Virus record (IMG/VR): IMGVR_UViG_3300036832_001426 | Reading direction: 5' to 3' (one strand) | Source of the DNA: an uncultured virus (IMG/VR IMGVR_UViG_3300036832_001426) | Lineage: Duplodnaviria; Heunggongvirae; Uroviricota; Caudoviricetes | Length of the DNA: 64,000 bases | Shown: positions 4,012-47,370 of the stretch, piece by piece | Numbering within the stretch: the stretch's first letter is position 1 | Layout of the letters: each line of letters begins with the position of its first letter | Notes under the pieces: generated by a model | What the model saw: only the letters and a program-made list of their open reading frames with translations | Database searches by the model: none | What the model was told of the DNA's origin: nothing | Program-made: the position numbers and the translations under genes

Positions 4012-5130
4012 ATGCCACGCATACGATCATACAAAGCCGAGTTCTTCGATGATTCCAAGGTGCTGGAGTGTTCTCTTCCGGCGCGCCTGCTGTTCCTCGG
4101 GTTGTTGCCTCACTGTGATGACCGGGGGCGGATGCAGTACTCGCTCGACAACCTGAAGGGCAGGTTCTTCTCTTCCCGGCTGGACTCTGAGATCGGTCGC
4201 GGTGAGATCGAAGCTTTCCTCGCCGAGCTTGAGGCCGTGGGCCTGATCGAGACTTACTCTGTCAAGCCACCCGGATCCCGGGAGAACATGCGAGCCCAGC
4301 GCTGGCTGCGCATCGTCCAATTCGCCCGCCACCAAGTGATCAACAAGCCCTCGCACTGCAATAGCCCGTATTCACCATTAGAGCTTGAATCCCGCGATTT
4401 GCTGCTTCATATCTGTGCTTGTGACCCAAAGCGCACACATCATCCAGAATGTGAGGAATTGCGCGAACAGGCTGCGGTTTCAATGCGTAACGGACGGCCA
4501 ACCCTCGCGATGTTCCTGCGGGAACTCACGGACGAGTCCGTGAATGGTACGGGACTAGTACGGGAGTACGGGACTAGTACGGGACAGGTCACGGACTTGT
4601 ACCGTGGGATAGGAGTGGAAAGGAGTAAATCTAAACCCTCTCGGGGCGAAAGTGAATTCGAACCGCAGGCTTTTGACTATTCCGAGTCCCGCCAGAGACC
4701 ACCTGACCCTCACCAGCAAGCAAGCGAAGAGCGTCGCACTCAACGTCGGGAGGCTGACGAAATCGCTATGCGAATGTTGGGCATTCTTCAGGTCGACGCC
4801 AACCCTAAGAATCTACACCTATTAGCCAAGGCCATCGAAATCAGGGCCAGATCGAGAGCGACCTCCATCGAGCTGGCAGGGCAGGGGATCCTCGCGAGCG
4901 CCGCCTTGATGGCCACTGAATCGCCGCCGGACAGCTGGGAACAGTGGCTCGAAGATGCGCGGTATCTCTATGTTCCACAGGGAGATCCGCGCCTGAAGGA
5001 TATCCACATCGAGGCCCGGCCAGTGTGCGGTGGAGGACGGTGTAGCGACGGCTGGGAGATGTTCAAACGGGGCGATCAGCTGGCTTCCCGGCGCTGCCCT
5101 GACTGCGTCAAGCTCTGGGGTGAGTCATGA
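4012..5130 (+). CDS. Phage replication initiator-like protein
   Basis: N-terminus MPRIRSYKAEFF..ARLLFLGL..DDRGR typical of phage initiator wHTH domains; internal iteron-like repeats; C-terminal Cys cluster. Confidence 0.7.
   Translation: MPRIRSYKAEFFDDSKVLECSLPARLLFLGLLPHCDDRGRMQYSLDNLKGRFFSSRLDSEIGRGEIEAFLAELEAVGLIETYSVKPPGSRENMRAQRWLRIVQFARHQVINKPSHCNSPYSPLELESRDLLLHICACDPKRTHHPECEELREQAAVSMRNGRPTLAMFLRELTDESVNGTGLVREYGTSTGQVTDLYRGIGVERSKSKPSRGESEFEPQAFDYSESRQRPPDPHQQASEERRTQRREADEIAMRMLGILQVDANPKNLHLLAKAIEIRARSRATSIELAGQGILASAALMATESPPDSWEQWLEDARYLYVPQGDPRLKDIHIEARPVCGGGRCSDGWEMFKRGDQLASRRCPDCVKLWGES
4526..4600. repeat. Iteron-like repeats, candidate replication origin
   Basis: GTACGGGA at 4547, 4558, 4566 and 4577; inverted repeat TCACGGAC/GTCCGTGA at about 4527-4543; all inside the initiator gene. 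Confidence 0.6.
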
Positions 5131-5425: not shown

Positions 5426-5944
5426 ATGAAGCGATGGCAGCTCAAAGTCGAGGACGGGATCGCAGCGCTGATTGACCGGGCGGCAGGAGAGCGGGGCATG
5501 AACCGGACGAGTTTCCTGCTGAGTGCAGCGCTGGGGGCAGTCAACGGTACACACAAAGTAGTACTTCGTACACACAAAGTGCTGCCTGTGGAAAATTCTG
5601 AAGCCAAGGAAAACGAGACGCAGAAAGAGATACAAGAACTCCCGGGGATGGTGCGGGAGGTCTGGGGGCACTACATGGGGGTTATTAAGAGGAACCCAAG
5701 GCTGTACACGTTGACCCAGAAGCGGCTGGGGATGGGGGTGAGGCGGCTGCGGGATCTGGAGCAGCGGAAGGTGCCGAGGGAGAACTGGGTAACGATCATG
5801 AAGCTGTGTGTGGACAGGTTGCACGGGTCGGCTTTTCACAACGGGGAGAACGAGTACCGGAAGAAGTACGTGGACTGGGAGATCCTGTTTCGCTCGACCG
5901 AGCAGTTTGAGAAGTGGCTGGACGATGAGAGGTGGCGGAAATGA
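5426..5944 (+). CDS. RHH-domain protein with replication-protein-like C-terminus
   Basis: WQLKVEDGIAALIDRAAGERGMNRTSFL (RHH pattern); C-terminal FHNGEN..YVDWEILFR; internal direct repeat GTACACACAAAGT x2 (5547, 5568). Confidence 0.6.
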   Translation: MKRWQLKVEDGIAALIDRAAGERGMNRTSFLLSAALGAVNGTHKVVLRTHKVLPVENSEAKENETQKEIQELPGMVREVWGHYMGVIKRNPRLYTLTQKRLGMGVRRLRDLEQRKVPRENWVTIMKLCVDRLHGSAFHNGENEYRKKYVDWEILFRSTEQFEKWLDDERWRK

Positions 5945-6189
5945 TCGAGCCCTGTATGCAGAGCGACCCGGACGACCGGAAGGTGACCTGCGGCTTGCCG
6001 CTGGGGCACAAGGGGTTGTGCGACTGGGCCCGGCGGCACGGCATACCGCTGGAATTTTATGCTCCGGCTATGACGCCCCTGCAGATCATCAAGCAGCAGG
6101 CGCTCATTCTGGCGGGCTCAGGCAGACGCGAGGATTTCAAATTGGTGGAGCGGCTCTTTGCCGCGCTGCCGGAACTGAGGGATGTATGA
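5941..6189 (+). CDS. Hypothetical protein with C/H cluster
   Basis: ATGA overlaps on both sides. Confidence 0.55.
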   Translation: MIEPCMQSDPDDRKVTCGLPLGHKGLCDWARRHGIPLEFYAPAMTPLQIIKQQALILAGSGRREDFKLVERLFAALPELRDV

Positions 6190-7829
6190 AGCCGACGCGG
6201 GACCAGATTTTGCGATATGTGGCGGATCGTTTTTCGGGGCAGCATGTCACGGCGCGGAAGCAGTTGATGTTGCGCTGCCCGTTTCACGCGGACTCCAGCG
6301 CGAGTTTGTCTTTCAATACCGAGGAAGGGGTGTGGAAGTGTTTCACGGGATGCGGGGAGGGTGGGCTCATCGACTTCGAGCACAAGCTCAATGGTGGATC
6401 GCGGGAGGAGGCGCGGGCCCGCATGGAGGAGGTAATGGGCGCAGAGCACCTATTTGTGGGCGGCCTGAAAAAGATTGTGGCGGTTTACAAGTACGTGGAC
6501 GTGCAGGGCAATCTGGTATTCGAAAAGGTGCGCTACGATCCCAAGGATTTCAAGTGTCGCATCCAGCTGCCCAATGGCGGGTATCAGATGCACCTAAACT
6601 CCACCACCGAGAAGCCGCTCTATCGGCTGCCCCAAGTGATGCGGGCGGGCGTCATCATCGTGGTCGAGGGCGAGAAGGATGCGGATCGCGTGATGACCCT
6701 CGGGTTGCAGGATGTGGCGGCGACCACGGCGGAAGCGGGAACCAGCGTCTGGCGCGATGAGGACTCGGCGTACTTCAAGGGCAAGAAGGTTGTGGTGTTG
6801 CCAGATAACGATGAGGGCGGCAAGCGGCACGCGGAGCGCATCGCGGAGTCGGCGATGAAGCACGGCGCTGCTGGCGTGAAGCTGATCGAGCTGCCCGGTC
6901 TGGGCCCGAAAGGCGACATCTCGGACTGGCTCGATGCCGGGCACACGGTCGAGGAATTCGTGCAGCTGGTGAAAACCACGCCCCACTGGCGGGCCAAAGA
7001 GGCGGAGTACGTGCTCACCGTCGACGGCGCGGAATTCGCGGCGCAGGCCCCGGAGCGCATCGACTGGCTGCTCGATCAGATCATCCAGAAAGGCGGCAAC
7101 GGCATCATCGCGGGCACGCAAAAGGCGGGCAAGTCGCTGGCGGCGATCTATCTCCTGCTCTCGCTCATGACCGGGACGCCATGGTTCGGATTCCGTGTGC
7201 CCCGGCGCATCAAGTGCGGTCTGGTCAGCCGCGAGGATCATCCCTCGCTCACCGCCCAACGCCTCGCCCAGCTCTGGCGCGGCGGCGACTGGCGCGATCA
7301 CTACCATGGCTGGCTGCGCCTCAACACCCGCAAGCAGACGCCGACTTTCCTGCTCAATGACGACGCGACCGTCAGTCAGCTGATCGCGGAATACCAGCGG
7401 GCGGAGGTCGAGTTCGCGGTCTTCGATGTCTTCCGCAAGCTGCATCATGCGGACGAGAACGATAATTCGGAGATGCAGAAAATTTTGGAGGTGCTCAACC
7501 GCTTTCAGGCGGAGGTGGGCTGCGCGGTCGCGCTGGTACATCACATTTCCAAACATTACGAGGGCTCGGTCTTCCGCAACATTCGCGGCGCGGGTGCAAT
7601 CGACGGCTGGACAGAATGGGCGATGGGTATCACCATCACCAACCCCGGGGAGAAGAGTTCGCGCAAGTTTATCCGCGAGTGCCAGTTCGAGACCAAGGCG
7701 GCGGAGTCGGCTGACCCCATCTGCTTCCGCGTCGAGTCGGGGCTCGATACCATGCGGCTGGTGCTCACCGACGGGCCCAAGGATGATTCGAATTTTTCCA
7801 TGGCGCAATTGCTCACGGAAAGAGGGTAG
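6186..7829 (+). CDS. DNA primase-helicase (CHC2 Zn finger, TOPRIM, RecA/AAA_25-type ATPase)
   Basis: CPFHAD..WKCFTGC; VVEGEKDA; LPDNDEGG; GTQKAGKS Walker A; VFD Walker B; LVHH. Confidence 0.9.
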   Translation: MKPTRDQILRYVADRFSGQHVTARKQLMLRCPFHADSSASLSFNTEEGVWKCFTGCGEGGLIDFEHKLNGGSREEARARMEEVMGAEHLFVGGLKKIVAVYKYVDVQGNLVFEKVRYDPKDFKCRIQLPNGGYQMHLNSTTEKPLYRLPQVMRAGVIIVVEGEKDADRVMTLGLQDVAATTAEAGTSVWRDEDSAYFKGKKVVVLPDNDEGGKRHAERIAESAMKHGAAGVKLIELPGLGPKGDISDWLDAGHTVEEFVQLVKTTPHWRAKEAEYVLTVDGAEFAAQAPERIDWLLDQIIQKGGNGIIAGTQKAGKSLAAIYLLLSLMTGTPWFGFRVPRRIKCGLVSREDHPSLTAQRLAQLWRGGDWRDHYHGWLRLNTRKQTPTFLLNDDATVSQLIAEYQRAEVEFAVFDVFRKLHHADENDNSEMQKILEVLNRFQAEVGCAVALVHHISKHYEGSVFRNIRGAGAIDGWTEWAMGITITNPGEKSSRKFIRECQFETKAAESADPICFRVESGLDTMRLVLTDGPKDDSNFSMAQLLTERG

Positions 7830-7860: not shown

Positions 7861-8235
7861 ATGCAATATCGCGACATCGTGCGGCAGGCAGAAGAGAAAC
7901 TCAGGCAGGCAAACGGCAACCGACTCACCATCGACGCGGCGGAGCTGGTGAAGCTCTACCTCGCGATCCCGCGCCCCCAGCACGGCGATGAGTGGGGCAA
8001 CTGGAAGCTGAACTCCGACGAAGGCTACGACTGGCTCGACTTCGCAGACGGGGAGTGGTATTGGGCGAACTCGCCCTATTACATTCCGGTCGCCGAGCTG
8101 CTCGCTGACGACGGTCTCCTCCGCTGGCTGAAGCACCTGTCCGAAAAAGTGTGGTTCGGGTCGAACCCGGAAAACGCGGGCAACTTCCTCTGCGCGGTGT
8201 TCGATCTGCGCGGGTCACGGGACTCGCGACATTAG
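7861..8235 (+). CDS. Hypothetical protein
   Basis: AAGGAG RBS, ATG at 7861. Confidence 0.65.
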   Translation: MQYRDIVRQAEEKLRQANGNRLTIDAAELVKLYLAIPRPQHGDEWGNWKLNSDEGYDWLDFADGEWYWANSPYYIPVAELLADDGLLRWLKHLSEKVWFGSNPENAGNFLCAVFDLRGSRDSRH

Positions 8236-8251
8236 ACGAGGAGCGCCTATT

Positions 8252-8578
8252 ATGAATAATCGCATGGTCCGTGAAGTCGAATGCCCGCACTGCGCTGCCG
8301 TGCTCGATGTGAAGGTCAAGGTACAGCTGGTCACGCCCGGCGAAATCCTTGAGGAATCGGTGACCAAACTTAGCGTCAGCATGCGCCTCTACAACGTTCT
8401 GCTCCACGCCCATATTCTGACCGTGGGCGAGCTGGCCGAAAAGACCGAGAGCGAACTGGGCCGCATCAAGGGCTGCGGGAAAAAGACCGTGCCGGAAGTG
8501 CGCTCCGTGCTGGCCGCGAAAGGGCTGCAGTTGCGCCCCGAGGGAGATGAAGCGCAAAGCGCGGAGCTGAGACCATGA
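8252..8578 (+). CDS. Zn-ribbon + stand-alone RNA polymerase alpha C-terminal-domain homologue
   Basis: CPHC, then LSVSMRLYNVL..HILTVGEL...TESEL..IKGCGKKTV.EV..VL..KGL, matching the alpha-CTD HhH pattern. Confidence 0.8.
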   Translation: MNNRMVREVECPHCAAVLDVKVKVQLVTPGEILEESVTKLSVSMRLYNVLLHAHILTVGELAEKTESELGRIKGCGKKTVPEVRSVLAAKGLQLRPEGDEAQSAELRP

Positions 8579-9199
8579 CCCACACCTGCCCGGCTTGCGG
8601 CAGGGAGTGGGAGTGTGCCTGCACCGACAAGGTCAAGCGCGAACACGCTTTGCTGTTCGGCGAGCATGAGGAAGAGATTGCCTGCTCCGAGCAGTGCGCC
8701 CGGCATCTGCTGGCCCTGCGGAATTTTTTAAGGAGGCATCGCTGATGATGATGATGAGCCGGATTCCCTCGACCAAGTGCGAGAGCTGTCACTGGCGCTA
8801 TCCCCACTCCATGCTCAGCCCTTATCACTCCAGCGCCGGAAACCTCGGCCCGGTGTGCGGCATCTGCGCCCTGCTGCTGTCGAACCGCGATCTGGGCATG
8901 GAGCGCACCCACTTCACCGGGCAATTTGCCGAGCACATGCGGCAGATGGCGCTGACGTGGCGGGAGCGTCATCCTGACCTCGGGCCCAAGCCGGAGGTGA
9001 TTCCATGAAGCCCCCGCGAGAGGTCCACGGTCTCACCGACGACGAGCTCAGGGAAGCGCGGATCTGGTGGCAGGCGCTCGCCGACAGCACCAAGGCGCAC
9101 GCCTCGATCTGGACAATTCTGGCGCTCTACGCCCAGCACTGGGCAAAGGTACATACCGTCAGTTTTGCTAGTGACGACGAGGAGGCGCAAATGCGTTAA
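8575..9199 (+). other. Three short tandem hypothetical ORFs (8575-8745, 8745-9008, 9005-9199), two Cys-rich
   Basis: Overlapping start/stop codons and RBS motifs. Confidence 0.55.
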
Positions 9200-9316
9200 T
9201 GTTCTTGACATGGAACACTTGGGGGAGTAATACAGTCGTCAACGCAGTCCGGTTTGCGGTGACCCCTGATGTACCACTTCCCAAGCGAAAGGAAAACTTA
9301 ACCCGTGAGGAGAAAT

Positions 9317-10087
9317 GTGAATGGCAACCAGCCCGAAAGTAATCCCGATATTCAAGCGTGGCTCGCAACGGGCTACCTTTGTTCCCGCACCGAAGCGGGG
9401 CTTGAGTCCATCCGAGCAGCGGCAGGCGTTTCGCTCACTCAACAGCAACTGTGCCAGTGGGTGGGAGAATTTTTTCTTTCCAAGGCACGCGGGGCGCTAC
9501 TGGACGGTGCCCAACATCTGTCCCAAATGCGGGGAGATGCCGCCGAAGGATATGCATTCGGCGCTGGCCCGCAGGCGCTTCATGTTCACCCACGCAATAA
9601 GCGCGCACTGAGCGTGGAGGCTCGCGCCGCGATTTCGAAGGCGCAGCGCAAACGCTGGCGGCTGGCGAGGGTGGCGGCACGCGGCGGACGCAAGGAATCG
9701 CTGAAGAGCTTCAAGCCTGCCTCGCGCTCGCACTCCATCGCGAACGCTCGCGGACAGAAAACTTACTGGGCCGGGATGACCAAGGAGCAGCGTTCCAAAG
9801 AGATGCGGCGGCGCGTGCTGGTGCGGCAGGGCAAGGCCACGTCGGTGGACAAAAGGAAGCTGGGCCCGCGCACGTCCGCGAGGGCGCTGCCCAAAGGCTT
9901 CTGGCAGCAAGAGACCAAGCGCCTGCTGGCCAAAGGCCCCGTCACCCGCGCCGAGCTGCGGTCGGCGCTGCTGCGCGCCCAGCCCGGCAAGGAAAACGCG
10001 ATCACGGTGGCGCTGGCGGCCATGAAGCGCGAGCACTTTGTCAGCGAGGTCAATCAGGTATTCACCCTGCGCGAGGCGAGCGCATGA
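9317..10087 (+). CDS. Highly basic putative DNA-binding protein
   Basis: GAGGAG RBS + GTG; LSVEARAAISKAQRKRW and YWAGMTKEQRSKEMRRR basic helices; C-terminal wHTH-like segment; TTGACA at 9205 upstream. Confidence 0.6.
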   Translation: MNGNQPESNPDIQAWLATGYLCSRTEAGLESIRAAAGVSLTQQQLCQWVGEFFLSKARGALLDGAQHLSQMRGDAAEGYAFGAGPQALHVHPRNKRALSVEARAAISKAQRKRWRLARVAARGGRKESLKSFKPASRSHSIANARGQKTYWAGMTKEQRSKEMRRRVLVRQGKATSVDKRKLGPRTSARALPKGFWQQETKRLLAKGPVTRAELRSALLRAQPGKENAITVALAAMKREHFVSEVNQVFTLREASA

Positions 10088-10291
10088 CCCCGGCCCGCCT
10101 CTACCGCGAATTTCTGCAGCTGGAGGGTGGCAGTCAGTGGCAGTTCGTCGCCATGGTGGAATTGTGGCGGCAGCGGCGAAAAGAAGAACTGTACGGTGTA
10201 GCGCGGGCGGTCAGTCATGAATTCGGTTTCGACTGGACCGACCCGCGCACCGGGCGCACGTTCCCTGCGCCCCAGAAGTCGAGGTTGAAAC

Positions 10292-10639
10292 ATGCAAGTC
10301 GAAATGCTGCACATCCATCACGGCGACAAGAAAAAGAAAATCGACACTTCGGTCGCCGAAGGAAAAAATGAAGTTGAGCGCCTGCTGAAAAATCTCTGCG
10401 AGCAGAAGTGCGCGATCTTCCTCGAACGTGGCAAGGAAACCTACCGGGTCACGGGCTACGACAAGGCGACCGACCAGCTGATCGTCGAGCGCCCCCGCCG
10501 CGCCGGGCGCAAACCCAAAAACCTGCCTCCAGCGGTCGACCGCATGACGGTGAAAGAGGCGGAGCGCGCCTATTGCCGGGTCGATGCCGCCAGCGCGAAG
10601 GTGACCGCCGTGGCTCCGGTCGCGGGCGGATCGAGGTGA
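10292..10639 (+). CDS. Small protein with MoaD/ThiS/Ubl-like C-terminus (VTAVAPVAGG-SR)
   Basis: GAGG RBS; C-terminal beta-strand followed by PVAGG. Confidence 0.7.
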   Translation: MQVEMLHIHHGDKKKKIDTSVAEGKNEVERLLKNLCEQKCAIFLERGKETYRVTGYDKATDQLIVERPRRAGRKPKNLPPAVDRMTVKEAERAYCRVDAASAKVTAVAPVAGGSR

Positions 10640-10643
10640 CGTC

Positions 10644-11654
10644 ATGGCCTCGCTTCCGAACGACCTCTCCGCCGCCCAAGCCACCCGGCTGGGCTTCCGC
10701 AGCGCCCGCCAGATGCAGCGCCTCGGGGAGCGCGCTTTCCGCAGGCGCGCCCTGAAGCAGGCCGCCCTCGAAGCCGTCCTCGACGCCGAGGACGACATCG
10801 TCGCGGATCGCATGGCGCAGCTCAAGGTCATCTGCGGCGTCACTATCGCGGAGCAGGATCTCTCCGACGACATCCAGAATTACCTCACCCTGATGGCCTT
10901 CCGCACCGCGCAGGGCGTGGAGGTCAGCTATGAGGAGGCGCATGCCGCCATCAACCAGATCGCCGAGGAGCACGGCTTTCTCTCCGGCGTCCCTATCCCC
11001 ATCGTGCGCCGCGACGGGAATGAGGCTCCCGATCTGGTGATGGCGGCAGGGGTGCCGCTGGCCGAACTGTTTCACATGAATCAGGCCCAGCGCCGGGCGG
11101 AGCGCACTGAACTCGAAGGCAACCTGCTGCGCTCCCATCTCCGGGTGCGCAATTCGTGGCACATGCTGGGCGATCAGACTGTCGCCGTCATCGAGACCGA
11201 GAAGGGGCCGATGGCGCTGCCCCACTATGATGCGGGCATGCGCCTGCGCAAGCTGATCACCGGGCATCAGGTGCGCTTCCATGCTCACCAGCGTGCCGAG
11301 GCGGAGATGAAGGCCCTCGAATCGCTGCGCGCCCGCATCTCGGAATCGCAGTTTGACAGCTACGTACTCTCCGGCATTTTTCCTGAGCGCTCGCCGCGCT
11401 CCGATGTCTGGTATTTTTTCCGCAAAGGTTACCCCACGCTCGCGGTCTCGTTCCACGGTCAGCACGGGGAAGATGGCAAGGTGCTGTGTGCCCTCTGCCT
11501 GCATCCCATGGGCTACTATCAGGGCACCCACGTCGGGCTGATGATTCCCACCGACGAGGTCATCGCTCACCTGCTCCTGATGCGCGCCGACGAAAGAAAA
11601 TTCTGGGCGAAGTCGGGACAGTGGCGGGCGGAAGATACCCGGAGTGGAATATGA
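10644..11654 (+). CDS. Hypothetical protein with C-terminal LCALCLHP..PTDEVIAHLL..DE..FW domain
   Basis: GAGG RBS; starts 4 nt after the GG-protein gene. Confidence 0.8.
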   Translation: MASLPNDLSAAQATRLGFRSARQMQRLGERAFRRRALKQAALEAVLDAEDDIVADRMAQLKVICGVTIAEQDLSDDIQNYLTLMAFRTAQGVEVSYEEAHAAINQIAEEHGFLSGVPIPIVRRDGNEAPDLVMAAGVPLAELFHMNQAQRRAERTELEGNLLRSHLRVRNSWHMLGDQTVAVIETEKGPMALPHYDAGMRLRKLITGHQVRFHAHQRAEAEMKALESLRARISESQFDSYVLSGIFPERSPRSDVWYFFRKGYPTLAVSFHGQHGEDGKVLCALCLHPMGYYQGTHVGLMIPTDEVIAHLLLMRADERKFWAKSGQWRAEDTRSGI

Positions 11655-11869
11655 AGACTTACGGCCTGCTCATCGAGGTCACGATGGAAGAGCATGAGGA
11701 TGAGGGCTTGGTGCGTATCGCTGCCACCGACCCGGTTCCCGCACCTGCCATGATGATTGCAGTCGAGCACATGATGAACTGGTTCGCCGGAGAGTCGGAC
11801 ATGGGCTACGAACTCGCGCTGGCGCTGCTGTGTGAGGGCGCACGCAAGGCCAAGCGGAGGCTGACATGA
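11651..11869 (+). CDS. Hypothetical protein
   Basis: GGAG RBS; overlaps neighbours. Confidence 0.6.
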   Translation: MKTYGLLIEVTMEEHEDEGLVRIAATDPVPAPAMMIAVEHMMNWFAGESDMGYELALALLCEGARKAKRRLT

Positions 11870-12561
11870 ATGCCCTGCATCCCGCGCTGCCCGCGCTGCC
11901 CGACCGCATGAAGAAATTGCCCGTCGATGCTCGCGGGTACCCCGTGCCATGGTTTGTGCACTGGTTCCACGCCAACGGCAAAGCGCTGGAGAGTATCGAC
12001 ATTCGCCCCGGGCCCGGCGACTACCCGGATTTTCGCGTCGTCGATTCGCGCAAGATGCGCCGCGCCGTGCGCGAGGATCTGTGCTGGGTGTGCGGCGAGC
12101 CTCTGGGGAAATTCATGGCGTTCGTCATCGGCCCCATGTGCGCCGTGAACCGCACCTCGGGCGAGCCGCCTGCGCACCGCGACTGCGCGATCTTTTCCGC
12201 CATGGCGTGCCCCTTCCTCACGAAGCCCAAAGTCGAGCGCCGCGAAAATAATCTGCCGCTGCCGGACGAGATCCGCGTGCACCCCGGAATGCTGGTGCGA
12301 AATCCCGGCTGCACCATGGTCTGGATCACGTTCAGTTACACGATCCATGAGGACACAAACGGCGCGCTGTTCAGAATCGGCGATCCCGTCGACGTGTTGT
12401 TCTTCTGCCAAGGGCGCGTGGCGACCCGCGAGGAGATCATGCACTCGATTGACACTGGGCTGCCTTCCCTGCGCGAGGTGGCGGCGCTGCAGGGCGAGCC
12501 TGCGCTCAAGGCTCTCGATGCGATGTATGACGAAGCCCTCAAGCTGGTGCCTGCGCGGTGA
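11866..12561 (+). CDS. Phage Cys-rich hypothetical protein (RGYPVPWFV..CWVCG..GPMC..CPFL)
   Basis: GGAGG RBS; Zn-binding-like motifs. Confidence 0.75.
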   Translation: MNALHPALPALPDRMKKLPVDARGYPVPWFVHWFHANGKALESIDIRPGPGDYPDFRVVDSRKMRRAVREDLCWVCGEPLGKFMAFVIGPMCAVNRTSGEPPAHRDCAIFSAMACPFLTKPKVERRENNLPLPDEIRVHPGMLVRNPGCTMVWITFSYTIHEDTNGALFRIGDPVDVLFFCQGRVATREEIMHSIDTGLPSLREVAALQGEPALKALDAMYDEALKLVPAR

Positions 12562-12721
12562 AAACCATGGTGCGGGTGGCTCACATTGTCTGCATCGAGG
12601 CGATGTGCTGGGTGGCAGGCGTAATCGGAATCAAACTGCTTGCCGAGGAGTGGGTACGCATTGCCTTTGCGGTTTGTTGGCTCGGCTTGTTCGCCCGCAG
12701 ACTGAGGAGATACGGGCAGCT

Positions 12722-12937
12722 ATGGTGATGGGAAAGGAAATCGAAGCACGCGAGAATGCGAACTACATCACCTGCCCCAATGGGCACAAGGTCTTTGTAA
12801 TCTGGTCCTCGCAGTTTAAGAAATTTGCCTTCACCTGCGATGAGTGCGAGGAACATTCGGTGCGCGCCATTTCGCCCATGACCGGGCACGTGGTGGAGGT
12901 GCGAGTCGTGAGCAGGATGAGAAAGCGGGAGGTTTGA
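12722..12937 (+). CDS. Zn-ribbon protein
   Basis: CPNGH...CDEC. Confidence 0.5.
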   Translation: MVMGKEIEARENANYITCPNGHKVFVIWSSQFKKFAFTCDECEEHSVRAISPMTGHVVEVRVVSRMRKREV

Positions 12938-12940
12938 GCA

Positions 12941-13131
12941 GTGAGTAAGGACAATCCTGTCAATGCAAAATTGCCCGGCTACGAAGTACATCACGCCACC
13001 GCCGAGCGCTTGCTCAAAGAATTCGCGCAGATGGCCCGCAGGGCAACCTGTTCTACATTTCGAGCGCCCGGCGCGAGGACATGATCAAGACCATGAAGGA
13101 ATTCATCGCCAAGCAGGAGAAGGGAGCATGA
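12941..13131 (+). pseudogene. Probable internally deleted/frameshifted small gene
   Basis: The N-half (VSKDN..YEVHHATAERLLKEFAQM) and a protein-like C-half (GPQGNLFYISSARREDMIKTMKEFIAKQEKGA*) are in different frames, with the switch at about 13031. Confidence 0.45.
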
Positions 13132-15791
13132 TTGGTGGCCAGAGAACGAAGTGACCGATTCACCGGGCTGGAGGTCGAACCTCACAGTGTCCTACCCGGG
13201 CAGCAGGTCTGCGTGGCGTACCGCAATGGCAAGCGCGTGGGCGTGCTCTATTTCAACGAGGCCCGGTTGCGGCTGGTCTTTGAGTCCGACGAACAGCTCT
13301 GGGTGGAGAAGCGGCTGGGACTTTCCGACTTCGAGCGCGTGTACGAGAACGGAGGCGTATGAACAAACTGTACGGTGAAGACGAGCACAGCAAATTCCTG
13401 CTCTGCATTCTGGAGCCGGGCAACATCCACCGCCTGACCACGGAGCGCCAGCCCATCGAGATCAACCTCAACGACAAGGATGGGCCATGGGCCAAAGGCC
13501 TGCCCGCGAAGGTGACCATCCACATCGCCTATTCCGAAACTCCGGTCTCGGACGCGAGCGAGCTGCGCAAGCTGATGCCCGATCTCAAGGTCAAGGATCG
13601 CCGCACGGCGGTGGTGGCCGCGAAGCGCCCGCATTGCCCCGAATGCAAGTCGACCGTCGAGGAGCTGGGCGTATGGCGCAGCGAGGAGTCGCCGCTGTGG
13701 ATCGTCTTCTGCGCGGCGTGCGGCGCGGTCTTCGGAACGACGCCGCCCGTCGCCGGGCTGGAGAAGAAAAAACCATGAACTCATTCCACTGGACGCAACT
13801 TGCCTCCGCTCTCTGCCTGATCGCCGCCGTTGTCGTGAACCTCGTCCTTACCCTGCGAAGTGTTCGGGAGTTGCGCGAGAACCGCGCCATCCGTGAAATT
13901 CTCTGGGCCTATGAGCGCGAGATGAAGGAAAGAGGAGTGACCCTGCCACCGCGCTGCGCATGGTGCTGTGAAGTTCTGCCCGACCACGTAGGGAAATGCC
14001 CTTTGAGATGGGAGTACCCCGACGCACTGCTGACTTCGCGCTTCACCCGGCCCAAGATCAAATACTTTCCCAACGGCGAGCAGCCGCCCGACACGGGCGA
14101 CAAGAGGAAAATGAATTGAGCAAAACCGTAAAACGCGGAGACGTCATCGCGCAGGAGATGGAGCTGGGCGAGGTGATGGACGAAGATTCCATCACTATCG
14201 CCTTCATCAAGCTTTTCAAAGAGAAAGACGGGCGCGAAGGGCGCGTCGCCATACTCTGGTCGACTGACCTGTTCACCCGTCCCGAGCTGCCCTTCCCTGA
14301 TGAATTGCGCGAGGAGCTGGTGCTCGCCCTGCGCCTGCACGCCAACAAGCTGGAATCCCGCGAGACCGATGCGCGTGCGCAGGAGCACGTCCGTCGACCG
14401 GGTCAGGCATGAGCTACCGCGAAGAGAATGGCGAGGTGGTGCTCACCCTGAGCCGGGACGATTATGATCTGCTGCTGATACTGCTCGGCCTCGCGGTGGC
14501 GGCGCTGCTGCCCGACCCAACTCCGGTCGACCGTGCGATCCGAATGATCAATCGGTTGAATGAAGGCAACCCGCAATTCGCGCCGTATCAGGTGAAGCCA
14601 TCATGAGCGCGGACATCGAAGTTCGCGCCGGGGATAACATCTGCGATTTTTGTTCCGATGCGAAACCCGAGCGCGTTTACAAATCCCCGGACTTCACCAT
14701 GGATGAGTCGCATCCTGAAATCGGTGTGCCCGGGATGCGCTCGAAAGGTGCGTGGATTGCGTGCCTCGCCTGCGCGGCGCTGATCGACAAGGAAGATTGG
14801 GACGGGCTGGTGTTGCGGGCGGTGTCGCGCCTCGGGCCGAAGTATGACGGCATGATGCCCCGCCGCATTCTTGCCGACACAGTCAGGCGCTCTCACACTT
14901 TGTTCCGTGAGCACTGCTACAAGAGAAAAACATGAGCGCCTTCGACGATCTCTTCGACGACCCGGAGCTGGCGCGATATCTGAAGCACGCAGAGAAGGAC
15001 ATGCTGCCCAAAATGAAATCCTCGGCGCTCACCATCATCATCACCGCAGAGCCGGACATCAAGCTGTGCTGCGAAGTGGGCGCTGCCGTGATGTACGACA
15101 AACCCTTCGTCCTGCTGGTGCCTCCGGGCCGCCGCGTTTCCGCCAACCTGCGCAGGCTCGCGTCGGTCATCGTCGAGGGCGACGTCACCGATCCGGGGGT
15201 CATGAAGCGGCTGCAGCGCGCTCTGGAGAACGTAATGAAAAACGATGCACGCTGCAAGGAGCCGATCCAATGAGCGAAGCCGCCGCCGATCTGGAGCAAA
15301 AATATCCGTGGATTCCATGGCGCAGCCCCGTCCTCATGCTGACCCCGAAGCGCAATGGCTACGCCTGCCGCTTGTGTATTGGGCGGCTAGGCTTCCGTGC
15401 GTGCGATGCGGAAGCCTGCCCATTCCTGTTTGAGACCATGGCGGAGTGTGAACGTCACATTGCGGAGTGTCACCCATGAGCGAAGCCTGTCACCTCAAGC
15501 AGGGCATCTTTGCGCGCTGGTTCATCTTCCATCCCGAGAACCGTTTTCGCGGATGGAGTGGCAGCCAGTGGGTGGAGTGCAGTCCCGAAGGCCTGCCCAC
15601 TCACACCCAAGTCTGCAACTTCGAGAGCGAAGAAGAGGCCCGCGCCTATTGCCGCGAGCACGGGCTGGAGCCAGTCGATGGTGCATGAGTGTCCCAAGTG
15701 CAAAGATCTCTGGGAGTGCATCTACGAGCGCTGCAAGCTGCCCCGCATCGCGATTTGTTTTGTCTGCTTCTCGAAGGCGTGGCATACTTGA
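13132..15791 (+). other. Cluster of about 10 short tandem hypothetical ORFs (13132-13362, 13359-13778, 13775-14119, 14116-14412, 14409-14606, 14603-14935, 14932-15273, 15270-15479, 15476-15688, 15678-15791)
   Basis: Serial 4-nt overlaps; several have CxxC pairs; 13775 has an N-terminal TM helix. Confidence 0.65.
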
Positions 15792-40590: not shown

Positions 40591-43500
40591 ATGGCAGATG
40601 TTTTGAGCGATCCCACGCAACAACAGCCCGTACAGCCGCCGCCAGCGGACCCAGCAGGCGGAGCAACGACTTCGTGGACACCCGCGCCTCCGCTGGACGA
40701 GAACGGCGTGATGCAGCAGATAGCTGCCATTCCAGACAAGAAACAGCGGATCGTGCAGGGAATCGCCCGTGGCTTGGTGCCGATGGTGTCAGCCGGAAAC
40801 GACGACGCGCAGCTGGTGCCTCCATCGCGTGTGCAAGAAGCGGGGCGCAGTGGCTATCGTCGCGCCACGATGATGTCCAGCCCAGAGGAGCAACTGCATC
40901 TGGTAGGGAACGATGAAGTGCAGCAGGCGATCAATAACCATTGGAACGTCGGCCAGCCTATCAAACCACCTGCGGCTGGAATTACAGATCCGTCTGATCC
41001 GGGCTACGGAACAGATGAGTGGTACATGGCGCACGCGCCACAGTCCCTCGTTAAAGGGATGCAGTGGTTCAAAAAAGGTCTCATCGATCCCTTCGACGCG
41101 ATGGCGGCAGCGGGCAGTAGCGCACTGGGCGAGCAATTTGAAAAGGGCGCAGCCACTACCGTAACTCCGGCTCATCGCGGTGGGATCATGCCGCTGCCTC
41201 ATCCCAGATATCCAGCTCCAGAGATGACGAACGAAGAGCTACAGGCCGCCCGCGAAAATTATCCGGCGTACACGGGGATCGCACGCGGTGTTGGCGAGAC
41301 AGCTGGCGGGATGGCTGCCGACCCGCGCATGTGGCCACTCCTATTTGGCGGCGAGGCGCTCCCCGTCGTGCAAAAGTTGGCGAGCGCAGGATTCAGCGGG
41401 CAAATGCTCTATGGCGCTTACCGGACCTACCCAGAAATCAAACAGCTTGCCGACAGTGGCGACGTGGAGGGCGTCTATCGATTGCTCACTCACCTCGGCC
41501 TCTCCGCATACATGGGCGCTCAAGGCGGCCTGCACACGGTCGGGGAACTTCCCCAGCTGGTCGGCCCGGAAGCAGTAGCGGGAGCCTTGCGCGAAAGTGG
41601 TGCCAAGGACATCAGTCAGGTACTCGGGCCAACAACAAAAGAGAACAAGGCCATCACACAAAAAATCGCGCCGGAGATCGCAGGGCGGAGCATCTTCGCA
41701 TGGACTCGGAAGGGGTTGTCCGAGAGAGCAGAGAGAGAGGCGGAACAGGCGGGCCAGAAAGTCGACCAAGCTTACATGGCGCTCGGGCCTGATGAGCGCG
41801 TACCCACGCAGCCGATCCTCGATCACTTCGAACAAAGCAAGCAAGCATTTATGAGTGCCGAGGGCAAGGTGCTCGATCAAGCCGCAATAGATCGTGTCGA
41901 TGCGCTCAAACAAGTAGTCGCGCAATTCGGGCCAGACGTCAGTCCCGGCGACATCGTTAAGCTGCGACGCTTGTGGGACAAGCAGATCGCTGCGGCGCAT
42001 GGATTCTATGGGAAGACTGTTGCAGAGGGGTCCGCGCTTGATGCGAAGCGCGAAGCCGCAGATGCGATCCGCAGTGAATTGGCGCAGCAGTATCCCGATC
42101 TTGACAAGATCAACAAAGAGTTCTCTTTCTGGGCGAACGTGCGCAAGGTCATCGGCGAGACGGTGACCCGCAAGGAATCACAGGCCCCGCCTTTGGGTGA
42201 GACCGTGCTTGCTGCTGGCGGACTTGCTCATGCAGGAGCGCCGGGAGCGGCAGCGTGGTGGGGACTGCGTAAAGTCCTGACGTCGACCGCGTGGAACACG
42301 GCCTCAGCGTCTTTAAAGTTCAAGATCGCTGATTTGCTTGCCGATGGTAAAACCGAGCAGGCCGCTACACTGGCTGGCCAGCAACTGAAGATCCCGTTCC
42401 CAGAGGGGCCACTCTGGGATATCAACCAGACGCCAGCGCCGCCAGAACCGACGCCGCAGAGAGCACTGCCACCGGGCCCGCCAGCACAAGGAAGACGCTT
42501 GGCGGAGGCGCAGCCGATTCACCCCATGCCGCCCAGCCCCCTCGGCGCTGCCATGCAGCCCATTGCTGGCCAGCTTGGCCCGGGAGCCGAGCCTCCGGCG
42601 ATCACCAGCCCTTCGCGCATGCTCGGCCCGGCGCGCCTGCCGCAATCGATTGTGCGTCCCACGCCGGGTCTCGAAGCACCCACGGCCCCCTCATCCAGCG
42701 CCGAAGCCGCTGCCGTTCAGAGGGCCGCAGAGCAGGGTCGTGGGCCGGGCGCGCAAACCCCCACCCCCTCAGAAAATGTCGCTCCAGCGGCTCCAGAATC
42801 GCCGCAGGGGCCAATTCCTCGCCCGCTGAGGTCGGCGCTCCGTGCCGGGCAAACTGTGGGCTCGGCAGAGTCTACCCGGCTCGACAACGAGTTCCTGCAG
42901 CAGGCCAAGCGCGAGAGGCCTGATGGCTCAGTCAGCCAGTGGCTGCAGCGTGCGCAGGAGCTGAAGCAGCAGGCGCAGCAGGCGCAGCCCTCGCCGCTCG
43001 GAGGGGTTCCGCTCTTCTCCCGGCCACTGGTCGCACCGCCGGAAGGGACCAGCCAGCTCGACCTCGGCCTGAACCTGCCGCGCCGGGGCGAGCCCTTCTT
43101 CTCGAAGGCCGAGCAGATTGCAGATCAGAAACTGCCAAAGTCGGGCAACGGTGATTCCTTCCTCGCCACCCTGCGCAACAACGGAGTGAAAGCGGAAGAG
43201 ATGGCGGATCTTCATCTCGATGATTTCGCAGGCAAGGCAAAAGTCACGAAGCAGGAATTCCTCGACGCGATCCGCAGCCGTCGCCCGCAGCTGGAGCAGA
43301 CGACGCTGGAGGACGAAAGGGGCGAGACGAGCTACGAAGGTTACAGGACGCCCGGCGGCAAGAATTATCGCGAGACGCTCACTCAGTATCCCCGGAGTGA
43401 GGCGGGGCAGCGTGCGGAAGCGCTGAAGGCGGAGATCTCGCAGCGCAAGCAGGAACTCGACGACGAGATTGACCGCCACAATGCCGCCAGCGCGGAGCGG

Positions 43501-46500
43501 CAAGCGCAGTGGCCGGATGACTACTTCGACAAAGAGCGGGCCGCGATCAGCCACCTGCAAGTGCAGCTCCGCGACGCTGAGACTGAAGCTCGTAGAACGG
43601 ACTACCAGAGCGGTCACTGGGTCGAGCATCCCAACGTGATGGCGCACAGCCGCGAGTCAGATTTCACCACGACCGACGGCATGCCCGTGCGCCACGTTCA
43701 CGAAATCCAGAGCGACCTCCACCAACTCGGGCGCGAGGGTGGCTATCGAAGCCCGGCACTGCGCCAGTTGCCCGAGGGATACAAGACAGAGCGGATGAGC
43801 GGCGGCGGATTCCGAGTTGTCGATCCGCGTGGCCGCGTCGCTACGATGCCCGGCGATGCAACCGATATTGCGAGCTTCCCCGGCGCTGGGAGTCCAGAGG
43901 ATGCGATAGATGCATACATCGGCAGAGCGAACGCCGCCCAGCGCGGGTCCGCTCCCGATGTGCCCTTCAAGAAGAGCTGGCACGAACTCGCGGTGAAGGA
44001 CTCCATTCGCCGCGCCATCGACGACGGCCAGCAGGGCATGACGTGGGACACGGGCGCGACGCAGGCGGATCGCTACGACCTCTCGAAGCACGTGAGCCGC
44101 GTCGAGTATGACCCGGATACCCAGACCCTCATGGCACGCGATCCTTCAGGCAAGAAGGTCATCGATGAGAACGTGAAGCCTGAAGACATTCACAAATACA
44201 TCGGCAAGGAGGCTGCGGAGAAGCTGCATCACCAGATCGAAAATTACTATCCGCCTTCAAGCGAGGAGGACTATTCGATTACGTACGACCCCGAGGGCGA
44301 GACCTACCACGTCTTCGATCAGAATGGCGAGCGCATTGGAGAGGAAGAAACACATCGCGACGCGCAGCGGATGGTTCGGGATTATGTCGATAACGACTAC
44401 AACAATCGGGATCTGCCCACGCTGCGCGGCCTCGATCTGAAAGTCGGCGGCGAGGGCATGCAGGGCTTCTACGACAAGATGATTCCCGACTTCGTCCGCA
44501 AGTACACGAAGAAGTGGGGCGCGAAAGTCGACACCGCAGAGATCCCCACGGGTGACACGCAAAAAGAACATGAGTACGTCGGGCCAGAGCTGACCAAAGA
44601 TCAAGTCGAGCAGAGGTGGAAGGCTTCAGCCCGCAAGGGGCCGATGGAATGGAAGAAGAACGACTACGCCGGGGGCGCGTGGGCGTGGTATCAGGACGGT
44701 AAGCAGATCAGCGGTGCGTTCCACGACGCGAGCGATTCCAAGGTGGCTGCGCAGACGATCTCCAATGATCCAGTCGAGCGCCAGTGGAAGAGCGTGCTCG
44801 ATGACATGAATCGCGGCGTGCCCTTCAAGGACACGATGGCGAACAACTGGAATTTGGCCGAAGAGGTCGGTGGCAAAATCCAGACGAACGAGAATCCAGT
44901 CACCACCAAGGTCCACCGCCTCACCTTCACGCCGGAGATGGTCGACGCGGTCAAGTCGGAAGGCCAGCCGCTTTATCAGAGATCGCTCGAAGCCGCGACT
45001 CAGCAACCGCTGTTCGCGAAGGGCTCAGGCGTCAGCGGTGCGAAGGCTCTCGAAACTCTTCGCGCTGCGAACGAGATGAAGCCGAGTATCGATGAAGGCG
45101 GGCCGGATCGCGCTGCTCGACTACACATCGACGACGCCACCTACAAGCTGCTCCAGAACCTTGTGCCCGGCGGCGGCGACTGGCTGGGCGTGAACTTCCA
45201 TGAAAGCGATGCGCGGAATATCGCGAGAATGCTGCGCGGGAATGCGGATGCCTTAGAGCCGACAGGCCAGACGACCGCCGTGGCCAACATGCGGCGGCTG
45301 GCGGATCTGATCGACCGGGCGCATGGTCTCAACTTCGATCCCAACGCTCCGGGCCATGGTGGCGTGCCAATCGTAAAAGACCTCAGCTCCGAGGCACACG
45401 AAGCTCAAACGCACGTTGGCCAGCGTGCGCTTTCGCCAACGAGCGACGTCATCGACTACACCAACGTCGACAAGACTGTAGACCATCCTGTCGTCCGCAA
45501 GGCATGGCCAGCGCTGGAGAGAATTGGGGCAACCTCGCATCCCGGGCTCGCGGTCGCGGAACTGGAAGCGCATCTGCTCGATGGCAGCCACGAATTCTTT
45601 GGTCTCTCGAAGGACGAGGCGGTACAATTCTTAGAGCACGCCCGCACCGTGATGCGAGAACATCACAGCGGGCTGATTCAGGATCCTCCGCGACTCGCGA
45701 AGGGTTATCTGGATTCAATAGATCGCTTCATCGAGGAGCACCGTGCCCAACCAACAGAAGCCGCAGCTGAAACTGCACAGCCGGGAAGAACTCCAGAAGT
45801 CGCTGGAGAAAATGGCGGAGCTGGCGAACCTACCGGACGAGCAGGCCCACAAGGAAATCGAGCGGCTGGTGACTCAGAAGAAGTAACTCCGCCCCGCCCG
45901 CTGTTTTCCAAAGCGGACGCCAAGCGCGTCAGCACGCGCAACCCCACGGCGAAGGGCGCGACCGAAGATCCCCTCAAGAGCGATCTGCAAATCAACACGC
46001 AAGCGATCCGCGATTCTGGGAGAGCCGACGCCATTGCGACTCTGCTCAGCCAGTATCCCGGCAATGCGAACCTGTCACCGCTTGACACCGAAGGCAAGCT
46101 CGCGGGCTTCCAACGCAATGGCGTCCGCAATCTGCTCTTCATGCATGATCAGTATCCCGAGGAATTCCGTAACGTCTCGAAGAACTGGTACGACGGCGCG
46201 AACAAGCTGGCGACCCGTGTGTGGCCCCGGGAATATGGCATCACCGACGCGCAAGGTGCAGGCGGGCTGGCGGCGATTTCTCCCAAGCTCGAATGGAACA
46301 AAAACATTGGCATCGAGCAGCGCATGATCGAGGCGATGCAGCAGCAGAATGATTTGAAGTACACCCCGAAGATGGCGGCCACGGCGAAGGAATGGATTGC
46401 CGCGACCAAGCCCGAGAAAAGAGCTGCGACCCAAGCCATGCTGCGCCAGCTCGCTGGCAAAAGACTGGGCGAGCTAGAGACACCGCTCCAGAAAGCGACG

Positions 46501-47370
46501 TGGATTCATCTCTATCAGGAAGCCGAGGGCGATCCGCACTACAACATGTATGCGCCTGACGGCTCCGTCGTCGGTCCTGCGCGAACACAAAAAGGGCAAG
46601 GGCCGCTCGCGAGCCTCGGCTGGGCTATGGACGGGAATGTTGCGAAAGCGGTCTCCATTCTCGAAGACGGATCGCGGGCGAACATTAGCAAGCAGCTCGG
46701 CATCGCCCACAAGATTCGCAGCTTCTACAACAACCTGATCGCGCCGAACTCTCGCGCTGGCGATGTCACGGTCGACACTCACGCGGTGGCCGCAGACCAG
46801 ATCCGCCCGCTCGGCATGAACAGCCCGGAGGTGGGGCACAACTTCGATGGCCCGGGATCGGACGTGACCGGAGTACACGGTACCTACGGTGTACACGCCG
46901 ATGCTTATCGTGATGCCGCCGCCCAGCGCGATCTTCTCCCTCGACAGATGCAATCGATCACTTGGGACAATGCTCGCTCGGTGTTTCCAAGAGAGTTTAA
47001 AACTCCCGCGAATAACGCTATAATCGATGCGATCTGGAGGGAATATGACCGTGGCATCAGAACCATTGGGCAGACGCGCAGGGCCATCATCGACGCCGCA
47101 GGCGGTTGGAAACCTCCCGACTGGGCAGGCTACCAACCCAGCTCTCGGTCACGATCATATTCTGGACGAACTCAAGAGGCTCGGCCTGCCAGTCAACCGG
47201 GAAAATTACCTAGCGCTGGCATTTCCAGACCAGAGCGATCCCCAGCTGTCACCGGAGGAGGAAGCTCAGCTCCCGCCGGGACTCCGGCTGCCGCGAAACC
47301 AGCGGTCACGGTTCGTGGAACCGGAGCAGTAGGAATTCCCGCACAACTGAAACGTGTCATGAAGAGGTGA
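40591..47370 (+). CDS. 2259-aa polyvalent (multi-domain, probably injected) protein
   Basis: Ejection-type N-terminus; domain with SGHW..NVMAH.R..HEIQSD..GGEGMQGFYD; HEAQTH..E metallopeptidase-like motif; C-terminal HhH-GPD-like HKIRSFYNN..VTVDTH. Confidence 0.8.
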   Translation: MADVLSDPTQQQPVQPPPADPAGGATTSWTPAPPLDENGVMQQIAAIPDKKQRIVQGIARGLVPMVSAGNDDAQLVPPSRVQEAGRSGYRRATMMSSPEEQLHLVGNDEVQQAINNHWNVGQPIKPPAAGITDPSDPGYGTDEWYMAHAPQSLVKGMQWFKKGLIDPFDAMAAAGSSALGEQFEKGAATTVTPAHRGGIMPLPHPRYPAPEMTNEELQAARENYPAYTGIARGVGETAGGMAADPRMWPLLFGGEALPVVQKLASAGFSGQMLYGAYRTYPEIKQLADSGDVEGVYRLLTHLGLSAYMGAQGGLHTVGELPQLVGPEAVAGALRESGAKDISQVLGPTTKENKAITQKIAPEIAGRSIFAWTRKGLSERAEREAEQAGQKVDQAYMALGPDERVPTQPILDHFEQSKQAFMSAEGKVLDQAAIDRVDALKQVVAQFGPDVSPGDIVKLRRLWDKQIAAAHGFYGKTVAEGSALDAKREAADAIRSELAQQYPDLDKINKEFSFWANVRKVIGETVTRKESQAPPLGETVLAAGGLAHAGAPGAAAWWGLRKVLTSTAWNTASASLKFKIADLLADGKTEQAATLAGQQLKIPFPEGPLWDINQTPAPPEPTPQRALPPGPPAQGRRLAEAQPIHPMPPSPLGAAMQPIAGQLGPGAEPPAITSPSRMLGPARLPQSIVRPTPGLEAPTAPSSSAEAAAVQRAAEQGRGPGAQTPTPSENVAPAAPESPQGPIPRPLRSALRAGQTVGSAESTRLDNEFLQQAKRERPDGSVSQWLQRAQELKQQAQQAQPSPLGGVPLFSRPLVAPPEGTSQLDLGLNLPRRGEPFFSKAEQIADQKLPKSGNGDSFLATLRNNGVKAEEMADLHLDDFAGKAKVTKQEFLDAIRSRRPQLEQTTLEDERGETSYEGYRTPGGKNYRETLTQYPRSEAGQRAEALKAEISQRKQELDDEIDRHNAASAERQAQWPDDYFDKERAAISHLQVQLRDAETEARRTDYQSGHWVEHPNVMAHSRESDFTTTDGMPVRHVHEIQSDLHQLGREGGYRSPALRQLPEGYKTERMSGGGFRVVDPRGRVATMPGDATDIASFPGAGSPEDAIDAYIGRANAAQRGSAPDVPFKKSWHELAVKDSIRRAIDDGQQGMTWDTGATQADRYDLSKHVSRVEYDPDTQTLMARDPSGKKVIDENVKPEDIHKYIGKEAAEKLHHQIENYYPPSSEEDYSITYDPEGETYHVFDQNGERIGEEETHRDAQRMVRDYVDNDYNNRDLPTLRGLDLKVGGEGMQGFYDKMIPDFVRKYTKKWGAKVDTAEIPTGDTQKEHEYVGPELTKDQVEQRWKASARKGPMEWKKNDYAGGAWAWYQDGKQISGAFHDASDSKVAAQTISNDPVERQWKSVLDDMNRGVPFKDTMANNWNLAEEVGGKIQTNENPVTTKVHRLTFTPEMVDAVKSEGQPLYQRSLEAATQQPLFAKGSGVSGAKALETLRAANEMKPSIDEGGPDRAARLHIDDATYKLLQNLVPGGGDWLGVNFHESDARNIARMLRGNADALEPTGQTTAVANMRRLADLIDRAHGLNFDPNAPGHGGVPIVKDLSSEAHEAQTHVGQRALSPTSDVIDYTNVDKTVDHPVVRKAWPALERIGATSHPGLAVAELEAHLLDGSHEFFGLSKDEAVQFLEHARTVMREHHSGLIQDPPRLAKGYLDSIDRFIEEHRAQPTEAAAETAQPGRTPEVAGENGGAGEPTGRAGPQGNRAAGDSEEVTPPRPLFSKADAKRVSTRNPTAKGATEDPLKSDLQINTQAIRDSGRADAIATLLSQYPGNANLSPLDTEGKLAGFQRNGVRNLLFMHDQYPEEFRNVSKNWYDGANKLATRVWPREYGITDAQGAGGLAAISPKLEWNKNIGIEQRMIEAMQQQNDLKYTPKMAATAKEWIAATKPEKRAATQAMLRQLAGKRLGELETPLQKATWIHLYQEAEGDPHYNMYAPDGSVVGPARTQKGQGPLASLGWAMDGNVAKAVSILEDGSRANISKQLGIAHKIRSFYNNLIAPNSRAGDVTVDTHAVAADQIRPLGMNSPEVGHNFDGPGSDVTGVHGTYGVHADAYRDAAAQRDLLPRQMQSITWDNARSVFPREFKTPANNAIIDAIWREYDRGIRTIGQTRRAIIDAAGGWKPPDWAGYQPSSRSRSYSGRTQEARPASQPGKLPSAGISRPERSPAVTGGGSSAPAGTPAAAKPAVTVRGTGAVGIPAQLKRVMKR
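45743..45886 (+). CDS. Nested 47-aa helical ORF in the +1 frame of the polyvalent gene
   Basis: GAGGAG-N4-GTG; MPNQQKPQLKLHSREELQKSLEKMAELANLPDEQAHKEIERLVTQKK*. Confidence 0.55.
   Translation: MPNQQKPQLKLHSREELQKSLEKMAELANLPDEQAHKEIERLVTQKK
47045..47332 (+). CDS. Nested 95-aa ORF in the +1 frame of the polyvalent gene's 3' end
   Basis: GGAGG-N4-ATG; DHILDELKRLGLPVNRENYLALAF..LSPEEEAQLP looks folded while the host frame is low-complexity. Confidence 0.6.
   Translation: MTVASEPLGRRAGPSSTPQAVGNLPTGQATNPALGHDHILDELKRLGLPVNRENYLALAFPDQSDPQLSPEEEAQLPPGLRLPRNQRSRFVEPEQ

Follow-up and report, generated by a model that had tools for sequence, protein, structure and literature searches.

A probable small gene embedded in the +1 frame of a linker in a giant phage protein

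Introduction

Can the low-complexity linker of a giant phage protein hide a second gene? We asked this of positions 45743-45886 in IMG/VR record IMGVR_UViG_3300036832_001426, a stretch of 64,000 nucleotides from an uncultured virus of the Caudoviricetes, here called the window (W). At this place an open reading frame (ORF) of 47 codons lies in the +1 frame of a much larger gene, the host gene at 40591-47370, and runs beneath a linker of the host protein that is rich in Ala, Gly, Glu and Pro. A first-pass annotation, made from the letters alone, had read this ORF as a hidden gene and the linker as its by-product. To our knowledge, gene callers do not see embedded genes, and double-stranded DNA phages have yielded few of them. 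The ORF was picked from the raw sequence and then survived an independent comparative test with a second phage. Judging from that comparison, 45743-45886 probably does encode a protein of its own, as a gene nested in the host gene in the +1 frame.

Results

An ORF with its own start signals lies inside the linker

The main features of the locus, in window coordinates, are the following.

40591..47370, plus strand: host gene, encoding a giant multi-domain phage protein of 2259 residues with DUF7178 at residues 2013-2125
45719..45721, plus strand: TAG that closes the +1 frame upstream; the frame is open from 45722
45733..45738, plus strand: Shine-Dalgarno-like GAGGAG, separated from GTG 45743 by the 4-nt spacer CACC; Glu-Glu in the host frame
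45743..45886, plus strand: embedded ORF of 47 codons plus TAA (45884-45886), with a GTG start, wholly inside the host gene
45757..45885, plus strand: conserved, putatively dual-coding block over host residues 1723-1765, with constrained frame-0 wobble positions and a conserved +1 protein

The offset from the host start, (45743-40591) mod 3 = 1, puts the ORF in the +1 frame, where it covers host residues 1718-1765, the linker itself (RAQPTE...DSEEV), bounded on the 3' side by TPPRPLFSK. The first-pass annotation had described GAGGAG four nucleotides before GTG 45743 and a 47-residue +1 ORF over this linker, and the sequence bears this out in every detail. GAGGAG or GGAGG motifs also stand upstream of several long ATG-started ORFs in the window.

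A second phage carries the ORF as well. L031, an IMG/VR contig of 65.9 kb, is the sole reachable DNA homologue that covers both the linker and the domain upstream of it. Its host gene (8195..15154) encodes 2319 residues, and 821 of 2123 aligned residues (39%) are identical to the W host protein. Synonymous sites outside the block are saturated between the two phages (proportion of synonymous differences, pS, 0.67 by the Nei-Gojobori method), and L031 is thus a distant, independent witness. All evolutionary tests below are a single pairwise comparison of these two DNA sequences, a point to which we return.

13407..13577 of L031, plus strand: orthologous ORF of 56 codons, with an ATG start and its TAA in the aligned register

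The L031 ORF is preceded by AGGAG at 13393-13397, 9 nt before the ATG, and by a +1 TAG at 13391-13393. The peptides of W and L031 both start with Met-Pro. Neither stops in the +1 frame nor loss of the ribosome-binding site, either of which the first-pass annotation would have taken as evidence against a gene, was found in the one DNA homologue (1/1).

These signals bear on another route into the +1 frame. Ribosomes could slip near 45722-45760, producing a truncated giant protein with a helical alternative C-terminus. Such a frameshift would fit all the signs of selection on the +1 protein equally well, and the GTG with its 4-nt spacer looks weak as a start. However, a start codon and a Shine-Dalgarno-like motif are retained in both phages, shortly after the upstream +1 stop. 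The stretch in which slippage would have to occur is not conserved, and L031 has a 10-codon insertion there relative to W. No slippery run shared by W and L031 was seen by eye, no formal scan having been made, and RNA structure is ordinary (folding z -0.13 and +0.35). We therefore regard a frameshift as improbable. When frameshift-mediated translation is counted in, these sequence data make a real hidden gene at 45743-45886 very probable.

The open frame is expected by chance, the codon pattern is not

We kept the frame-0 protein fixed and redrew its codons according to the gene's own usage. The +1 frame remained free of stops over the block in 87% (W) and 88% (L031) of 20000 such synonymous recodings. 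For a +1 stop to arise, a host codon must carry T in its second position, as those for Phe, Leu, Ile, Met and Val do, and such codons are nearly absent from the linker; the frame is thus open by composition. Same-strand ORFs of at least 47 residues in an alternative frame are also common in the host gene, with 17 in W and a comparable 16 in L031. The open frame on its own is chance. The codon-level pattern and the conservation in the second phage exceed chance.

The codon-level pattern is visible within each sequence. G+C content at third codon positions (GC3) of frame 0 falls to 0.23 (W) and 0.27 (L031) in the block, against 0.69 and 0.70 gene-wide. These values are the minimum of 2217 windows in W and of 2277 in L031, and they lie under all 20000 synonymous recodings. 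When the block is read in the +1 frame, the normal pattern returns, with low G+C at second positions and high GC3. Window codon-usage log-odds favour the same frame, at +13.5 (W) and +14.9 (L031) bits for +1 and -3.3 and -3.6 bits for frame 0.

Codon usage and GC3 that favour the +1 frame would also be expected of a relic, in which the segment formerly belonged to the giant protein's own frame, was displaced by two compensating indels and still carries its old codon signature. A second comparable segment near the 3' end of the host gene fits this account. Against it, an unselected signature would have decayed, given that synonymous sites elsewhere are saturated, and the +1 frame has its own start and flanking stops in both phages, neither of which an internal protein segment would possess. 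We consider a relic highly improbable.

The pattern is also visible between the two sequences. Third positions of frame 0 differ at 13 of 43 codons in the block (30%), compared with 1258 of 2080 (60%) outside it (Fisher p=1e-4), whereas first and second positions in the block diverge at the level of the rest of the gene. Wobble divergence is 55-60% in the four 43-codon windows immediately 5' of the block; hence the drop at the block is sharp. Where the frame-0 amino acid is identical in both phages, the codon is identical too in 11 of 13 cases in the block, as against 377 of 783 outside (p=0.01). The two phages share the wobble base at 30 of 43 codons, for a composition-based expectation of 34.5% (p=3e-6), and at 19 of the 30 columns in which the frame-0 residue differs (p=0.001).

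Selection appears to act on the +1 protein

Next, we compared the translations of W and L031 frame by frame. The +1 translations are identical at 20 of 43 positions, stop included, with a BLOSUM score of 93. In frame 0 over the block, 13 of 44 positions are identical and the score is 51-52, so that the +1 frame is the better conserved in the comparison that the first-pass annotation had called for. The remaining four frames score 30-51, and all of them are interrupted by a stop in W, in L031 or in both. BLASTP aligns the two peptides with E=4e-8 (15/36 identical, 25/36 positive). We ranked 477 ungapped 42-codon windows along the gene by their excess of +1 over frame-0 identity, and the top nine all begin at residues 1718-1726.

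In a null model, the 48 observed differences were scattered at random over 20000 runs. The probability of a +1 identity at least as high as observed was 0.026, that of a BLOSUM score at least as high was 0.005, and that of identity, open frame and retained stop jointly was 0.005. The frame-0 BLOSUM score equalled the neutral expectation (P=0.82). The ratio of nonsynonymous to synonymous divergence (dN/dS, Nei-Gojobori) is 0.44 for the +1 frame of the block (proportion of nonsynonymous differences, pN, 0.32; pS 0.54). For frame 0 it is 1.57 in the block and 0.39 in the rest of the gene. The comparison thus indicates purifying selection on the +1 protein, in line with the proposal of a hidden gene. 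The neutral score and high dN/dS of frame 0 likewise agree with the view of the host linker as a by-product.

The host frame itself must clearly remain open. One unbroken frame is retained in L031 and in P0003-P0008, six near homologues of the host protein; the eight homologues are each a single long protein, and the +1 stop has no start codon after it. Over the block the host frame needs only openness, and the linker rich in Ala, Gly, Glu and Pro would therefore be largely a shadow of the embedded gene. Weaker support for the gene comes from P0003-P0008, whose frame-0 residues permit 103 of 118 of the +1 residues that W and L031 share, against about 27% for shuffled or shifted registers.

A/T-rich and conserved wobble positions in frame 0 could in principle reflect a constraint on the nucleic acid. 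Candidates are a folded RNA element, a regulatory site within the gene, and a run of rare codons ending in A or T that would slow the ribosome between domains. Ribosome pausing where one domain gives way to the next has been proposed before. However, folding energies are ordinary, there is no Rfam match, and the wobble identity lies far above what A/T-richness predicts. A rare-codon cluster would give A/T-rich wobble positions but would not preserve a particular base or a +1 amino acid. Moreover, 9 of 19 identical +1 residues are written with differing codons, which argues for conservation of the protein rather than of the bases, and start, stop and frame are all retained. We judge this explanation very improbable.

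The +1 frame could also be a chance by-product, with the stop-poor linker leaving it open in every homologue and the +1 similarity being inherited nucleotide identity. The ease with which the frame stays open under recoding, the number of comparable ORFs in both genes and a peptide without relatives or family all fit this account. It leaves unexplained a GC3 that is below every recoding and the gene-wide minimum in both phages, a wobble divergence that is halved, a +1 dN/dS far below that of frame 0 and a +1 similarity beyond that of randomly placed differences. Chance alone is thus quite unlikely.

In addition to the frame being open in most recodings and to the use of a single pair of DNA sequences, several observations weigh against an embedded gene. 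The W start is a GTG with a short 4-nt spacer, and a start codon between the upstream +1 stop and the ORF is not unlikely by chance. Divergence at +1 position 1 (17/43) is not below that at +1 position 3 (17/43), so that whatever constraint exists has to act on frame 0 as well. The encodability test on P0003-P0008 is confounded by frame-0 homology, and the count is only 17 of 32 where frame 0 differs from both W and L031. Among 1.84 billion representative proteins we found no relative of the peptide. Searches of Pfam, PHROGs and PADLOC gave sub-threshold matches only (Tox-SHH 0.026, PCI 0.069, PDC-M05A 0.029, phrog_19463 0.023), and neither PDB sequences (best E 0.3) nor Foldseek (best E 5) gave a match. 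The embedded gene is a candidate at the level of sequence.

The peptide is predicted to form two helices

The peptide contains no Cys in either phage. Basic and acidic residues number 9 and 8 in the 47 residues of W, and 13 and 5 in the 56 residues of L031. An AlphaFold2 (AF2) model from the two-sequence alignment (predicted local distance difference test, pLDDT, 84) leaves the N-terminus unstructured and places helices at 14-28 and 32-45. The predicted layout is a short basic, Pro-containing N-terminal tail, a conserved L-K-L-H-S/T and two amphipathic helices joined at L-P. Prediction of a homodimer gave no support (score 0.02, mark 0.42), which is evidence neither way.

This layout resembles the ribbon-helix-helix (RHH) family RHH_1 (PF01402). 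The likeness includes a length of about 45 residues, a basic N-terminal tail, an alternating L-K-L-H at the strand position and helices of about 15 and 14 residues, and the profile alignment has the register that such a fold would require. In contrast, no RHH family matched either peptide at a Pfam E-value of 10 or less, and hhalign of the peptide against 11 RHH_1 sequences gave P=0.09 (probability 0.6%), with 0.19 for a reversed control. The ribbon-helix-helix likeness is a resemblance only and stays a lead. A search of the Atlas returned unnamed clusters and weak antitoxin-like leads (0.76-0.79) for W, and nothing usable for L031.

The single match among the 1.84 billion representatives, P0018, was rejected. 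It is a tandem-repeat translation that was matched in 9 stretches, and we regard it as an artefact rather than a relative.

L031 is the only DNA homologue found

P0003-P0008, which were compared as proteins only, are 39-69% identical to the host protein over residues 1450-1950, and all six have a comparable linker. Viral contigs scanned with the single host protein gave no DNA homologue of this region, nor did profile scans of metagenome, viral and genome contigs with alignment A1. Scans with alignment A2 gave 34 loci (28 metagenome, 2 genome and 4 viral), and when residues 1450-1800 were searched against all 34 with tblastn, L031 was the sole match. The peptide alignment A3, alignment A4 and a DNA pattern derived from the peptide returned the L031 contig again and nothing else. 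Among named phage records, three matched at 28-32% identity, confined to query residues 375-600, with no DNA match.

The phage is known from soil-metagenome data only. A search of sequencing runs gave one soil-metagenome run, probably the source of the window, and no RNA run. The contigs of this run show no variant inside 45700-45900, which is uninformative. A second contig from that run, of 21998 bases, has a patchy match at 44018-44972, at about 80-85% identity with diverged stretches between, and this suggests that a related phage coexists in that sample.

The ORF follows a predicted folded domain of the host protein

45010..45741, plus strand: predicted folded domain in the host frame, residues 1474-1717 (alignment A5), ending where the embedded ORF begins

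The AF2 model of this domain has a pLDDT of 92.1 and a predicted template modelling score of 0.87, and its final helix stops at residue 1716. The domain had been called metallopeptidase-like in the first-pass annotation, a label that our searches did not back. Its motif HEAQTH, with invariant H1603, E1604 and H1608, reads HExxxH and not HEXXH; no Pfam family or PDB sequence covers the domain; and the model matched no solved fold (Foldseek best E 0.39, VIA-align best Z 4.9). The domain is rich in invariant His (H1589, H1603, H1608, H1632, H1661, H1683 and H1692). On its sequence, it may be an undescribed metal-binding domain. In a Pfam scan of the whole host protein, DUF7178 alone was recognised.

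On the other side of the ORF, L031 carries at 13578-13750 an insertion of about 57 host-protein residues (RFLRQRGNQIAFQDL...), right after the embedded stop. It is missing from W and P0003-P0008, which suggests that the linker boundary is an insertion hot spot.

The window encodes phage-type replication and tail genes. Positions 3910-5130 and 5808-7829 match a replication initiation protein and a primase/helicase. The majority of its other large ORFs have no PHROG match, and this suggests a poorly charted phage lineage.

Discussion

In our model, GTG 45743 would serve as an independent start site, to which the internal GAGGAG would guide ribosomes on the same mRNA as the giant protein, and the product would be a soluble protein of 47 residues. 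A one-base substitution that leaves the host protein unchanged would abolish the embedded start. By analogy with known nested pairs, the peptide may work with its giant host protein, as a partner, a chaperone or an inhibitor; we hold this as a tentative first guess, short of an even chance. A doubtful second guess is a small DNA-binding regulator of the ribbon-helix-helix type. The first-pass annotation's reading of the peptide as a cognate inhibitor or immunity protein of the upstream domain is conjectural.

Overprinted genes of small viruses and phages, such as the lysis genes of phiX174 and MS2, offer one comparison. As there, one DNA stretch would encode two proteins, and synonymous variation is suppressed in the older frame. 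The present case differs in that it lies in a double-stranded DNA phage-like element that spans 64 kb or more and is under no obvious size pressure, and in that the embedded frame is the structured one and the host frame the disordered one. Overprinting in general is treated in reviews (PMC8227390, PMC6188560). A test of ORF length, as the abstract of PMC6188560 presents it, would miss the embedded ORF because its frame is open in 87% of recodings.

The closest architectural likeness is with the spanin genes of phage lambda. According to PMC6139136, Rz1 is nested entirely within Rz in the +1 frame, and the proteins encoded by both genes assemble into one complex. In both cases a small gene, here a candidate, is read in the +1 frame from its own start, is fully contained in a larger phage gene and is passed over by gene callers. 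Rz1 is a proline-rich outer-membrane lipoprotein with a lipobox Cys, unlike the peptide, which lacks a signal sequence and is predicted to be helical; without Cys, it is not an Rz1-type lipoprotein. Rz is a lysis gene, in contrast to the 2259-residue multi-domain host protein here. The likeness is one of architecture. Embedded phage genes are a known kind, and the candidate peptide would join them with no family match.

The host protein also resembles the polyvalent proteins (PMC5512222) in being a giant multi-domain phage protein. It differs in that DUF7178 is the only domain recognised in it; distant relatives with the same domain also contain other Pfam families (PF18823, PF18760, PF18857 and PF18834). 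The main text of PMC5512222 has no occurrence of the words overlapping, frameshift or linker, and it describes no gene nested within a protein of this kind.

If the embedded gene is real, a disordered linker between the domains of a giant phage protein can be dual-coding. The composition of such a linker should then not be taken as a property selected in the host frame, and giant phage proteins would merit routine checks of frame-specific GC3 and wobble conservation. The phage repertoire would also gain a small-protein family without relatives.

We also hypothesize, more speculatively, that low-complexity linkers of the giant protein are out-of-frame shadows of small embedded genes rather than spacers (45743-45886 at least, and possibly 47045-47332), whose products would be dedicated same-mRNA partners, for example a chaperone, a packaging helper or an inhibitor. 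A partner nested in a linker would stay linked to its domain while phages exchange modules. We rate this wider proposal as rather unlikely.

A second +1 ORF lies in the 3' part of the host gene, at 47027-47332 on the plus strand (101 residues, P0019), with a possible start at ATG 47045 and GGAGG at 47036-47040. For P0019 no family or homologue was found. An L031 +1 ORF at 14835-15056 is not clearly homologous to it (BLASTP E=0.005, different register). Over residues 2185-2227 the host-frame GC3 is 0.30, the second lowest in the gene and under all 20000 recodings. Codon-usage log-odds there are about 33 bits higher for +1 than for frame 0, and the translation resembles that of an ordinary protein.

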